64,000 bases of DNA from Octopus sinensis (lineage: Eukaryota), in NCBI RefSeq assembly GCF_006345805.1, contig NC_043005.1, positions 78,244,001 through 78,308,000 on the forward strand, read 5' to 3'. The notes below the pieces were generated by a model, which saw only the letters and a program-made list of their open reading frames with translations, searched no databases and was not told the DNA's origin. This document shows positions 14,138 to 46,136 of the stretch, one piece after another. Position 1 is the stretch's first letter. Each line of letters begins with the position of its first letter. A program made the position numbers and the translations under genes.

Positions 14138-14358
14138 TGTAAATATAATATGTGACAATTATTCGGTAGCCATGATAAAACTCCGAGTTTCGGATGTCGG
14201 GGCGGAAACACGCACCGGAATCTCTTCAGTTATCGAGCAGTCCAAAAATTATTTGATGACCCGGTAACGGAAGAGATGTCGGTGCGTGTTTCCGCCCCGA
14301 CATCCGAAACTCGGAGTTTTTCATGGCTACCGTATAATTGTCACATATTATATTTACA
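14138..14358. repeat. fold-back element: ~96 bp inverted arms, ~28 bp spacer
   Basis: 14138-14234 is the reverse complement of 14263-14358 with few mismatches. Confidence 0.95.
14174..14234 (-). ncRNA. type I hammerhead ribozyme motif
   Basis: Minus strand: gataa CTGAAGA gat..atc c GAAA ctc-g-gag TT ttatc. Stem I is gataa/ttatc and stem III is quasi-palindromic. The mirror copy at 14263-14322 (+) has the core changed to CGGAAGA. Confidence 0.75.
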
Positions 14359-15769
14359 GATAAATTCCTCTACTTACATAATATCGAGGTCTCTTTCATT
14401 TTTATGTTGTCTTACCAGATAGATAGATAGATAGATAGATAGATAGATAGATAGATAGATAGATAGATAGATAGATAGATAGATAGATAGATAGATAGAT
14501 AGATAGATAGATAGATAGATAGATAGATGTGTGTGTGTGCCTGTGTGTGGCTGTGTGTGTGTGTGTGTGTGTGTATACAAATGATGTTTTATGATAGTGA
14601 ATTAACAGATGGATGTATGATACCCATCGACGATGGCGACGGCGATGCTGGCGGTGATGGTGGTGCTTCTTTTGATCATTATTCTTCAGTTGAGTGAACG
14701 ATGGTGATGGATGACTGGTGATACCAACCTGCTTTTGTGACTGCCTGTATTTCAATAGTTTGGTTCTACAAAGTATATAAGCATTAGATCAACACTGTAC
14801 ATTTTCCCATTCATAACTCTCTTGTTATCTAAATATAAATTTTCTCTCTATCTGTTTATCTATCTATTTCTCTGTTTACCTATCAATTTGTCTCTTTGCA
14901 TATTAATCAATCTATTGATTTACCTATGTATTCATTCATTCATTCATCTACCTATATAGTTAGTTAGCTACCATTCAATTCATCAATCTAATTTATCTAT
15001 CTACCATCTTAATTGTCTATCAATTTATGTACCTATCTACCTATCCGTCTATCTATCTATCTATCTATCTATCTATCTATCTATCTATCTATCTATCTAT
15101 CTATCTATCTATCTATCAATATATCTATCTATCTATCTATCTATCTATCTATCTATCTATCTATTTATCTATCTGCCTGCCCACCAGTCTGTCTGTCTGT
15201 CTATGTTTATCATTCTATTTCATGGCCCACCTCTCAATCTAGCTATCTATTTGCCTATAAATTAATATATCGATTTTGTTTACCCATTTTTTGCATCAAT
15301 TTATTGTTTATTTATTGAATATATATATTTATTTATTGTATATGTTTATTGTATATACATATATAGACATAGATACATTACATACAATGGGTGTGTGTAT
15401 GTGTGTGTGTTGCTAAATGATTATCTTTGTACCTATCTATCAACCTATCTGTTCATCTATCTATTATCCGTCTCTCTATTTATCAATATAATTAACGGCC
15501 CAACTAGGTATCTGTTTATTTACCTTTCACAAGCTCGAACGATCGAACGATCTATACGTCTATCCATATAACGATATTTATCTGTTCACCTACCTACCTA
15601 CATACATACCTACCTGCCTGACTGTTTGCCTATGTATGTATGTATCTATCTATCTATCTATCTTTATCTATCTATCTATCTATCTACATCTATCTATCTA
15701 TTATCTATCTATATCTATCTATATATATATATATATATATATTATATATATATATAATCAAAATAAATA

Positions 15770-15910
15770 ACAGGATTTTGAAGTAGTAATGCAGTACGAC
15801 TGTTTCAAGCGGCTCCATTTTATTGAACAATGCAATCATTACATCAATTTTAAATGCAGCCCAATCTTTAGCTGCACAGATATGGAATTTCAACAGACAT
15901 GATACATTAA
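15770..15910 (-). mobile_element. solo copy of the 43.8-44.2 kb HHR/PLE-terminus family, degenerate core
   Basis: tgcag CTAAAGA ... GAAA cagtcg TA ctgca; alignable to 43855-43990. Confidence 0.75.
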
Positions 15911-16695
15911 TATAATTTTTCGTAAATAATAATGTTGTTTAGAAACGTTCTCCCACTGAGGCCCTAATACTTTTTTTTCTTTTCTGAATCCTATTATAGC
16001 ACCTTAAGTATCGGATGAAGCCTCAAGAGAGAACGAAGATGAGATTTTCCCAAGATCAGCAAAAGTATCATGCAGCACTTAATGCTGCCGTCCAAGAATT
16101 TGGACCTGGAGATCTCCATTTCCAGCGACTTCAAGGGCCACCTCCCAGTGGTGTCGGGCGTCAACGAAGAGCCTTCGACTACAACAACACGACCAAAGTT
16201 TTTTTTTTCCAAGGTCTGGGGTCTCCCGCCTCTAAGCCCTAGACCGTCACCTAATCACCCTTACCCGTCTTGTTGCTTAACAACGACAACAACAACAGCA
16301 CTTAATGCTGGAACATTAACCCAGCGTTTTAATGATTACACTGAGTTCCAATAGAATATCTCTCAGAAACAGGCCACGTACAAATTCGTTCTTCAGACCT
16401 CTTGGAGCTGCTTTCAGATATGATTCATCCCATTCTTATAAAAATGGTAATTCTCTCCAAATTGGTGAGCTAAACTGAAATTGTCGTTTCTGCAAAGCTT
16501 CAAAATTTACTCCACAAATGTTTTGTCATCAATGCTGAACTTTCCTGTATCACCTGTTTCAACATAAAGGTATTATATATATATATATATATATATTTAT
16601 ATATATATATATATACCGGAGTAAACACATAAATGTGATGAAACAAGGTGGAAAAAAGAGTACTCAAATACCAGTGGTAGCGTAAGTATGCTTCA

Positions 16696-16823
16696 TTTAA
16701 AGCAGCAGAAAATTCAACAAAAACCTGTTACTCTGAGTTTCCCGTTGCCGTTCGTCGGACAGTTTTTCTAGCAAAAACTGTCCGACGAACAGCAGGTTTT
16801 GTTGAATTTTCTGCTGCTTTAAA
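16696..16823. repeat. fold-back element inside (TA)n with HHR-like motif
   Basis: Arms tttaaagcagcagaaaattcaacaaaaacct..ttcgtcggacagttttt and its reverse complement; centre ~16769; the right arm has an internal deletion. Confidence 0.9.
16719..16767 (-). ncRNA. minimal type I hammerhead-like motif, variant core CCGACGA
   Basis: Minus strand: aaaaactgt CCGACGA acggcaacgg GAAA ctc-a-gag TA acaggttttt. Confidence 0.55.
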
Positions 16824-43872: not shown

Positions 43873-43959
43873 TGCAGTACGATCGTTTCATGCAACTCCA
43901 TTTAATTGAACAATGCAATCATTATATCAATTTAAAATACAGAGCAATCTTCAGCTGCA
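43873..43959 (-). ncRNA. type I hammerhead motif with long stem II
   Basis: tgcag CTGAAGA ..~58 nt.. GAAA cgatcg TA ctgca; the base of stem II pairs imperfectly. Confidence 0.7.
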
Positions 43960-44090
43960 CAAAGACATAAAATTTAATTAAATTATACACATTAGTATAA
44001 TTATACCTAAAACCTCCGAGAAGTTAAGGAACTAGACAAAGAACATGCTACCTCACTCCAGTTTAGAAGTTACTCTAGAGTATGTCTTTG

Positions 44091-44177
44091 TGCAGCTGAA
44101 GATTGCTCTGCATTTTAAAGTAATGTAATGATTGCATTGTTCAATTAAATGGAATTGCTTGAAACGATCGTACTGCA
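44091..44177 (+). ncRNA. mirror type I hammerhead motif
   Basis: tgcag CTGAAGA (44096-44102) .. GAAA (44161) cgatcg TA ctgca. Confidence 0.7.
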
Positions 44178-44614
44178 TTACCCCTGGATATCCTTGTTGC
44201 TTATTTTGATTTTAATCACCTAACTTTGAAATTGTATGGATAATACCGTACTAAATTCTGGTGCCTCAACTTAAGTACCATATTCATCGGAATCTATATA
44301 GCTATCAATCAATCAATCTATCTGTCTATCTGTCTATTTGTGTGTGGTGGGTGTGTGGTGTTGTATATATATATATATATATATATATATATATATATAT
44401 ATATATATATATATATATATCAAGGGTTGAACTGAAAGATCACAACAAAGAGAATATGGGGAAACTAGACGAAAACGAACGGACCGGAATTTTAGACAAA
44501 GACACGATAACACAATATTCGCATACACACACACACCACAGATATATATATATATATTATATATATATATATATATATATAATATATATATATATATAAA
44601 ACGTTATTGGTGAA

Positions 44615-46136
44615 TTGAGAAATGGAGCTGAACGCAGATTGAACAGAAAGTTTTTTATTTCATTCTACACGTGTTTCGAAAGGCACAAATTACCAAAATC
44701 CGATTGAATAATGGGACCATATTGTGTCTTTCTCTTCAGGAAGAAAAAAGGAAATCCGCTGGAAAAACAAAAACAGAACAGAGGCGGAGCAAAAGCAAAT
44801 CGAACTATGCTCCTAAGAGCCCATGGCGAAACTGTTTATCAGTGTATGTTGAGAAACGGTGGCTGAAGAATTCAACGGGTCAGGCATCGGTCAATCATGT
44901 GGGTGAGGGTGTATAGATGTTCTTTGTGACCGAGCATAAAGTTCTGACTATTTAAGAATATTGGATGTTTTAAAGGGGCGAGAAAAAATCTACTTAGAGA
45001 CGTGTGTGTGTGTATACTGTTCTATATATGTGTTGTGTTGGCGTAGAGGGTAGAAAAACATTTTGTGTACGTGTGTGCGTTGATCGTTCGGCTGTCATGT
45101 GGCTACTGCCGTGATAACCGTTGGGTGGCAGAAAGAAAAAAATATATATATATATTATGTGTGTGGGTGTTATGCCTGCCTTGTACCCCCGCTGGTGAAA
45201 AAACCAAGCCCCGTTTGTATTACAGGAGTAATTCCCCTTGCAGTGTTATCGAGATTCTTAAAGGCTATTTCGAATTTGTACCAAGGGCTATGGGTGCCGG
45301 TATTATTTATAAACGTAAAAAGCCAGATAGGTTCGCCGCCGGCATCGAAAACCGACTGTAAGAGCCCGTTTTCGGGACGTGAACAAGCGCCAGAAAGACT
45401 CAGTAAGCTAATATACTGAAGGATACGAACTTTAGGCGGAATGTCAATTTGTCGGTGGTCATTGATCAGTTGCAATGTGTCTGCCATATTTTGTTTGCCT
45501 GGTTAAACGGGCTCTTACATCGATGCCCATTGGCGCGTACACTTATGCTTTTAAATAGCGAATACCGGCACCAAGCTTGTAACAAATCGCTTTAAGATAT
45601 CTGATTAACCACTGCGAATTTCCTGTAAGACAACACTGGTTTGCTTGAAAGGCAGGCTTAGATGAACATAAAACGATTTTTTTTTCTTCTGCCCCCAACG
45701 TTTCAAGGCAGTCCCATGACAGCCGATCAACGCACACACGTACACATGTTTCTACCCCTACGCCCATATTATACAGTATCACACACGTCTCTAAGTAGAT
45801 TCTCGCCCCTTATTTCAATATTCCTTAAATTCAGAACTTTATCGGTCACAAAGAACATCTATCAACCCTCCCACATGATTGACGAATGCGACCCGTTGGA
45901 TTCTTCAGACCGGTTATCCATACACTGATAAACAGTTTCGCCATGGGCTCTTAGAGCTGTTCGATTGCTTTTGCTCCGCCTGTTCTGTTTTTGTTTTCCA
46001 GCGGATTTCCTTTTTTCTTCCTAGAGAAAGACACAATATGGTCCAATTCATCGGATTTGGTAATTGGTGTTCGAAACACGTGTAGAATGAAATAAAACGA
46101 TTTCTGTTCAATATGCGTTCAGCTCCATTTCTCAAT
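44615..46136. repeat. ~1.5 kb imperfect fold-back of a probable PLE 3' end
   Basis: 44615 to ~45385 aligns inverted to ~45490-46136, with indels increasing toward the centre; (TA)n abuts the left end and lies ~130 bp past the right end. Confidence 0.9.
44659..44745 (-). ncRNA. type I hammerhead motif with long stem II
   Basis: Minus strand: ttcttc CTGAAGA gaaagacacaa..ttgtgcctttc GAAA cacgtg TA gaatgaa. The mirror at ~46015-46091 (+) has a deleted core (CTAGA). Confidence 0.8.

Follow-up and report, generated by a model that had tools for sequence, protein, structure and literature searches.

How does a genome come to carry, in one place after another, two inverted arms of the same sequence in or beside a TA-rich microsatellite, with a hammerhead ribozyme motif pointing outward from them? 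The question is raised by a stretch of 64,000 nucleotides (nt) from Octopus sinensis (assembly GCF_006345805.1, contig NC_043005.1, positions 78,244,001 to 78,308,000 of the forward strand; this whole stretch is called the window, and its first letter is position 1). A reading made from the letters alone, here the sequence-only reading, had described six such fold-back elements at 14.1, 16.7, 29.2, 30.9, 43.8 and 44.6 kb, and had proposed a dense, multi-family population of non-coding or retrozyme-like derivatives of Penelope-like elements (PLEs). All six inverted repeats exist; their families are referred to, in the same order, as F141, F167, F292, F309, F438 and F446. We consider it probable that each fold-back is the insertion scar of a Hydra-clade PLE, or of a non-coding partner, likely formed from two separately primed complementary DNAs (cDNAs) that were joined together.

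Hammerhead motifs of the six elements

A strict type I descriptor (stem I of at least 3 bp, CUGANGA with at most one mismatch, stem II, GAAA, a palindromic stem III and UH) detected exactly six motifs in the window, one per named element and every one pointing outward: 14229-14174 (-), 16758-16725 (-), with the core CCGACGA, 29616-29675 (+), 31062-30978 (-), 43954-43872 (-) and 44739-44663 (-). Among 60 block shuffles of the window, the mean number of motifs was 0 with the exact core and 0.03 with one mismatch. Of 226 matches in the Rfam scan of the window (E<=1), the 150 listed included no hammerhead family and consisted of microsatellite-driven microRNA noise and one U6. The microsatellite context was confirmed, 10 of the 12 element ends being located within 25 nt of a simple repeat, compared with 15% of random positions.

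The sequence-only reading had placed a motif on each arm of five elements. The outward direction was borne out, but no element has two motifs that pass the descriptor, and two recognisable motifs are present in four of the six. On the partner arm, the core is CGGAAGA and stem I is broken (14.1 kb), the stem-III palindrome is broken (30.9 kb), stem II has a mismatch at its base in an otherwise nearly intact motif (43.8 kb), or the core is CTAGAGA (44.6 kb). An internal deletion has removed GAAA and stem III from the 16.7 kb partner, which is therefore a half copy, like that of the 29.2 kb element, which had been correctly described as one whole motif and a half copy. Gap openings number 30 and 83 in the two arms of the 44.6 kb element, as against 0-7 in 10 other copies; since this element is so rich in indels, the break in its core is probably an error of the consensus.

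One tail for each pair of arms

The genome (2.72 Gb) was searched with each arm, and the best 40 of 295-1,629 candidates were scored, with 30 loci per search kept. The copies share a fixed 3' end and differ in the point of 5' truncation. Every family has two fixed outer ends adjoining a microsatellite, end A, about 50-80 nt past GAAA (187 in F292), where the pseudo-long terminal repeat (pseudo-LTR) ends, and end B, 65-155 nt beyond A. The sequence between them is the tail, which in tandem copies (L156, L296 and L313) leads directly into the next open reading frame (ORF). A simple repeat stands at the 3' end in 111 of 120 loci of four families, duplicates included and occupied sites scored.

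Exactly one arm ending at A and one ending at B were observed in 73 of 75 pairs (P ~1e-19 against 0.5): 7/8 for F438, 16/16 for F309, 15/15 for F141, 11/12 for F446, 12/12 for F167 and 12/12 for longer-range pairs. F292 adds 15 clear one-tail pairs out of 15, with four more ambiguous. The samples in this tally were not selected on the tail, and 8 duplicate loci and inverted matches shorter than 25 nt were removed beforehand. A further 54 F167 pairs from tail-containing queries, every one with a tail on one arm and no tail on the other, were kept out as biased. Two F309 rows, at first tail-less on both sides, were reclassed, one being cut at the locus edge and the other having a tail with an internal deletion.

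The elements of the window are built in the same way, and they exceed the sizes given by the sequence-only reading because one arm of each runs on into the tail. F141 consists of a tail-less arm (14138..14248, -), which ends at site A and carries the intact motif, and a tailed arm (14249..14416, +), which ends at site B and has its degenerate core at 14268. For F167, the motif is on the tailed arm (16618..16771, -), with the CCGACGA variant common to many short copies, and the half motif is on the tail-less arm (16772..16830, +). The tail-less arm of F292 (29234..29398, -) begins within stem III, and the opposite arm (29400..29920, +) is just over one circularly permuted non-coding unit of about 510 nt, with the motif and a site B end. 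F309 has its intact motif on the tailed arm (30824..31285, -), and the motif at 31508, with the broken palindrome, on the tail-less arm (31286..31629, +). The reverse holds for F438, with the intact motif on the tail-less arm (43840..44073, -) and the nearly intact one, at 44096, on the tailed arm (44081..44299, +). The tail-less arm of F446 (44597..45370, -) includes the 3' untranslated region (UTR) and the motif, while the indel-rich consensus and the broken core belong to the tailed arm (45368..46278, +), with which the last element of the window ends, near 46278. A solo F438 3' end with the degenerate core CTAAAGA (15753..15890, -) was absent from the list of the sequence-only reading.

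Coding and non-coding families

F141, F167, F309 and F446 are truncated 3' ends of endonuclease-coding PLEs with Hydra-clade motifs. A single ORF, with a reverse transcriptase (RT) plus a GIY-YIG endonuclease (EN) at the C terminus, lies upstream of the pseudo-LTR; it is intact in F446, frameshifted in F167 and represented by its EN part in F309 and F141. The F446 locus L230 contains an intact ORF of 895 amino acids about 0.7 kb upstream of the motif, with DKT (SDKT), YRDD, RW followed by L instead of K, CxxC and CxH, and with a degenerate CxCX5C linker. The F167 locus L313 is a full-length copy with RT, EN and one frameshift, reached across a 1.1-kb 3' UTR, and its protein has RWK, SDKT, CxCX5C, CxxC and CxH. 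At the F309 locus L096, an EN ORF is located 1.4 kb upstream of the motif; its GIY-YIG match (E 2.8e-4) is just short of Pfam's cut-off, and CxCX5C, CxxC and CxH are all present. A same-strand GIY-YIG ORF was found upstream of F141 in three loci (L064, L074 and L075) with a common upstream body. The DKT/RWK region is outside the ORF parts of F309 and F141. The CCHH motif was not seen in these proteins, including that of F309. Asparagine- or serine-rich inserts are present between the RT thumb and the endonuclease in L096 (1036-1890) and L230.

These protein motifs and the (TA)n context point to membership of the Hydra clade, the published Hydra alignment having been compared by eye. The Neptune clade, a first guess, was ruled out by DKT, CxCX5C and the missing CCHH. 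Pfam gave a family name to neither full ORF (F446 and F167), and the only named match in the homologue searches was from Argonauta hians, at 34%. The PLE traits of partial tandems, an inverted 5'-truncated copy and an optional tail are all found.

The sequence upstream of the F292 motif continues the one downstream of it, with a period of 510, and the family occurs as a trimer (L242), a dimer (L244) and permuted monomers. Judged by its sequence, F292 is a non-coding, circularly permuted, retrozyme-like unit of about 510 nt with one type I motif per unit. Across 50 loci, subfamilies at 72-87% identity among them, no same-strand PLE ORF was found upstream. EN matches near F292 were rejected as its ORF, being on the opposite strand, and L358/L369 proved to be a segmental duplication. 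Upstream of F438, copies have some 3 kb of non-coding sequence in common, which contains internal repeats, and this family is possibly non-coding or retrozyme-like as well; an EN match in L278, in the opposite context, falls outside the shared body and was not accepted as its ORF. The PLE origin, the ribozyme fold and the multi-family density proposed by the sequence-only reading thus stand, and the non-coding or retrozyme-like character holds for F292 and possibly F438 but not for the four coding families.

Formation of the inverted arms

Inverted arms could also arise if a single cDNA turned back on itself at a short palindrome and served as its own primer and template; self-priming has been proposed for Penelope elements in PMC3846280. 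Several junctions are indeed located on palindromes (CTAG or the stem-III palindrome), the arms usually have alleles in common, and the tail-less arm of the shortest F167 copies lies within the sequence of their tailed arm. The upstream reach of the arms points the other way. When 26 pairs were compared with long natural copies, the tail-less arm had the greater upstream reach in 10 and the tailed arm in 9, the remaining 7 being level (within 60 nt). In the first 10 of these pairs the shorter arm has the tail and the longer arm has upstream body absent from the shorter, so that neither arm can be a copy of the other; moreover, both arms can exceed 1.6 kb with different truncation points (L246 and L247). 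Since the tail is found on the longer arm about as often as on the shorter, two target-primed cDNAs are favoured, and cDNA fold-back appears improbable.

The spacers are body of the longer arm. Of 27 unique pairs, 20 show a 1-10 nt overlap of the two arms at the junction, 6 have short inserts and one has a blunt join (three duplicate rows and two misaligned rows excluded). Minor alleles are common to both arms of one insertion more often than in permutations, with 12 versus 3.5 for F141, and 10 versus 2.6 and 24 versus 8.4 for F167. Arms long enough to include the motif all extend across the cleavage site; truncation of the arms at this site was considered and rejected, the starts of the partner arms being scattered and not at UH. 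Among 32 F167 arms, 15 stop at 23-37 nt upstream of GAAA, near a 4-nt palindrome and an initiator-like word.

The scar consists of two 5'-truncated copies of the 3' end of the element, placed head to head inside (TA)n, and its probable course of formation is the following. On each of the two cut strands of the target the enzyme would prime a cDNA, using the upstream start site for one and the downstream start site for the other. The 3' ends of both cDNAs would then be joined, presumably via short or palindromic complementarity. The template would be uncleaved RNA, since every arm reaching the motif crosses the cleavage site. If transcription began just upstream of the ribozyme, the accumulation of very short F167 arms would be accounted for, and their ends would fit run-off at the 5' end of the transcript. 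More tentatively, and with a likelihood well below even, these steps may belong to a two-primer reaction that proceeds in order on a single RNA-protein complex. The strand that is cut first would prime at the upstream site; the second strand, limited to the still single-stranded downstream site, would displace the first cDNA; and both 3' ends would anneal to give the one-tailed palindrome as the default product, with the 510-nt retrozyme making use of the same machinery. If this ordered reaction were true, many thousands of (TA)n-flanked sources of double-stranded RNA would have been seeded in the genome.

Abundance, covariation and folding of the motifs

Exact motif patterns of two stem-III classes gave 7,213 and 5,004 matches genome-wide, compared with 4 and 6 for the reversed controls, that is, at least 12,217 exact motifs; the F292 pattern gave 129 matches against 0 for its reversed control. 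Among neighbours within 4.5 kb in the first 100 matches of each large list, 19 and 14 were divergent, none convergent, and 2 and 4 on the same strand, the chance expectation in the first list being about 1.2. The six pairs in 64 kb are therefore a sample of a genome-wide pattern. The stem-III word of F309 is common to many further motif families, with stem II regions of 13 to 60 nt, some of which are intermediate between F309 and F438 (first 58 Mb of one contig).

Covariation, on which the sequence-only reading had made its ribozyme proposal depend, was found among 23 F141-type motifs: 84.8% of the cells of stems I and II are paired, 7 pairs are changed on both sides, and the covariation score was reached in none of 500 shuffles. 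Three of five measures were above all 500 shuffles, in statistics that ignore kinship. The predicted minimum free energy is -84 to -619 kcal/mol for whole elements versus -6 to -22 for the isolated motif, and stem-III-mediated dimers are favoured by 5-10 kcal/mol in prediction. By these calculations, RNA read through a whole element would fold into a very stable hairpin, in which the motif should be hidden. The competition between hairpin and cleavage put forward by the sequence-only reading is thus thermodynamically plausible in the model, selection or use being a separate matter. The ribozyme may be regarded as a passenger of the pseudo-LTR, predicted to act as a dimer through its palindromic stem III. 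Such dimers are predicted to need two sense copies, which tandems would supply and divergent pairs would not; one strand of a divergent pair holds a motif and its antisense, and therefore no dimer partner in cis.

The fold-back as a mobile unit

The fold-backs might instead be mobile themselves, as hairpin retrozymes or miniature inverted-repeat transposable elements (MITEs), with the paired ribozymes serving as a switch between cleavage and hairpin. The short F167 copies, on which this idea draws, are very uniform: an inverted arm is present in 27 of 29 non-redundant loci found with a junction-free query, the junctions cluster at CTAG, and the CCGA core found in short copies occurs in 0/29 long ones. 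Yet the 20 F167 junctions of the junction-free set take 19 forms, the ORF-linked CUGAUGA subfamily clusters likewise, junctions in four other families span tens of nt to 4 kb, and none of the six window elements has an undamaged partner motif. Junction positions and spacers vary from copy to copy, without the identity of termini and junctions that marks a fixed fold-back; since they differ between copies, the fold-back would not be the mobile unit, and we give little credence to this explanation. A fixed F167 junction was suggested by a junction-containing query and was weakened in the junction-free samples. The variant core of the short F167 copies (U4C, giving CCGAUGA or CCGACGA; L169-L228) is common among them and absent from the 29 long ones, and probably marks a short non-autonomous subfamily with a variant ribozyme.

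Several observations weigh against a scar of two primed cDNAs from ribozyme-bearing Hydra-clade elements. The one-tail rule is broken by L020, with both ends tailed, and by L156, a tandem with a tail-less far end. Eight of 20 unbiased F167 insertions lack a partner within about 5 kb, and pairing is therefore common but not obligatory. The arms of some pairs (L178 and L217) differ at several subfamily-diagnostic sites, which calls for two templates or for conversion at a later time. In F309 the sharing of alleles is uninformative (0 versus 0), and in F446 it is not significant (3 versus 1.3, with a permutation maximum of 3). The junction overlaps are BLAST ends in AT-rich DNA, taken without a chance control, and the (TA)n target evidence consists of occupied sites only. 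Two of the five covariation measures for the F141-type motifs are not above shuffles, and isolated motifs fold no better than shuffles (z +0.6 to -1.8 for minimum free energy, not significant). No ORF was found upstream of F438 in 5 + 30 + 3 loci. Finally, the in vitro work of PMC11167929, in its accessible part, saw the same start-site use on both strands and, with no strand difference in start site, does not predict the one-tail rule.

Support for the assembly and other features of the window

Inverted arms can be artefacts of long reads or assembly, a suspicion raised here by the indel-rich 44.6 kb element and by the locus L233, where a palindrome of 5 kb takes in flanks and other elements as well. 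The arms of the fold-backs, however, differ systematically (tail or none), as do their flanks; in each of four public runs there are contigs in which an arm is joined to its opposite arm, and one contig bridges unique flank into the 43.8 kb arm with no differences, in a run that may be the source sample. An artefact is therefore highly improbable, the least likely of the explanations considered. The contigs have no cover at 45443-45636 and 46219-46500, a lack that carries no weight by itself. The F446 ORF is covered in 29-30 of 30 bins by four runs, which are only guessed to be RNA and were read without a silent control. The L233 palindrome contains nested F292 and F309-like elements with flanks and is a possible artefact or secondary duplication. 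At 43600-43781, a 492-nt contig of run X3 follows the left flank and departs just before the 43.8 kb element, possibly as an empty or different allele.

Elsewhere in the window, a weak Hydra-type protein match (E 1e-6) is located at 28860-29015 (+), just left of the 29.2 kb element. Open frames without a Pfam match are present at 24716-25312 (+) and 19968-20504 (-), the second with a DKG motif; both presumably are remnants of other Penelope-like clades. The U6 small nuclear RNA match at 50353-50451 (+), 51.3 bits and above the Rfam gathering score, is probably a retroposed copy. A direct duplication of about 1.2 kb with 98% identity (4179-5413 and 5511-6727) may reflect the assembly or a recent tandem duplication, and a gap of 100 N occupies 11443-11542.

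Comparison with known systems

Inverted copies, the one-sided tail, opposite-strand ribozyme pairs, (TA)n targeting and PLE-derived retrozymes are published already. The sequence-only reading could not tell whether the paired architecture had been described; opposite-strand pairs are reported in PMC4209133, PMC8557442 and PMC3846280. In the accessible open literature, with most subscription journals and Repbase beyond reach, we found no count of tail asymmetry and no cephalopod Hydra expansion.

The Hydra clade (PMC8557442) comprises C-terminal EN+ PLEs, including Hydra-1_Obim (Octopus bimaculoides) and Hydra-2_Amil (coral). Its members resemble the present families in RWK, DKT, the missing CCHH, the CxCX5C linker, CxxC and CxH, in the canonical hammerhead near the 3' end and the (TA)n targets, and in inverted 5'-truncated copies with a tail that is often one-sided. 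The Hydra-2_Amil motif has a stem I identical to that of F167 and a near-identical stem-III palindrome, while the Hydra-1_Obim motif is unlike all six; of five stem-III words searched for in the supplement, four had no match. The tails are longer here (65-155 nt versus 30-40), the 3' UTRs reach 0.7-1.4 kb, unlike those of the published Hydra elements, and the small number of Hydra families given outside cnidarians contrasts with the abundance of exact motifs found here. Tail asymmetry, counted here, is described there as "often", without a count in the accessible text.

The minimal hammerheads of metazoan PLEs (PMC4209133) are similar in their short helix I, long helix II with an additional base on its 5' side, palindromic helix III and predicted dimer, but the stem II-loop 2 region of several motifs here is much longer (55-60 nt). 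Dual motifs on opposite strands, 100-700 bp apart, are described there for Schistosoma, and no Hydra-clade or cephalopod case was found in the accessible text. The same paper maps an intron end of the Drosophila virilis Penelope to helix I. The bases directly before the F438 core (43955-43972, -) and before the F167 stem I (L313) resemble 3' splice sites.

PAc, a Poseidon element of Anolis (PMC11167929), begins reverse transcription at either of two internal sites, and the tail is the stretch bounded by them; its protein cuts AT-rich DNA on both strands and extends both, and ribozyme cleavage is unnecessary for insertion. We count the tail between start sites, the extension on both strands and the predicted protein dimer as similar to the present elements; PAc belongs to a different clade, and its ORF begins inside the ribozyme rather than after the tail as here. 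The Penelope elements of Adineta vaga (PMC3846280) share head-to-head inverted pseudo-LTRs, the optional one-sided tail, and junction palindromes with microhomology, and differ in their low copy number; the account given there, self-priming on an antisense template, does not fit the tail distribution observed here. The N-rich inserts of the rotifer Penelopes resemble those of L096 and L230.

Animal non-LTR retrozymes (PMC7229834; bioRxiv 10.64898/2026.07.22.740005) are comparable with F292 only, being non-coding and AT-rich with one type I motif per monomer and occurring as dimers, trimers and permuted monomers. F292 differs in its unit of about 510 nt (220-390 nt for animal retrozymes), in its PLE-like motif, and in insertions with the inverted arm and one-tail signature of PLEs. 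A 2026 annotation of Octopus vulgaris (PMC13282606) lists 31 recently active Penelope-like families, the word ribozyme not being found in its accessible text, and a guide to manual curation (PMC8969392) mentions inverted pseudo-LTRs and short extensions. In this genome Hydra-clade elements form a large class of repeats, and repeat tools could mistake them for MITEs or for palindromes of unknown kind.

Taken together, the families are new, while their clade and their architecture are known; what is added is one sharp regularity and one retrozyme-like partner. PMC8557442 names the formation of PLE inverted repeats and the preference for microsatellites as an open question. For testing the one-tail rule, young families are available in this genome, as are a natural ORF that is intact and natural templates of very short length, and the rule itself, near-exact and with the tail on the long or the short arm, discriminates between the published models.

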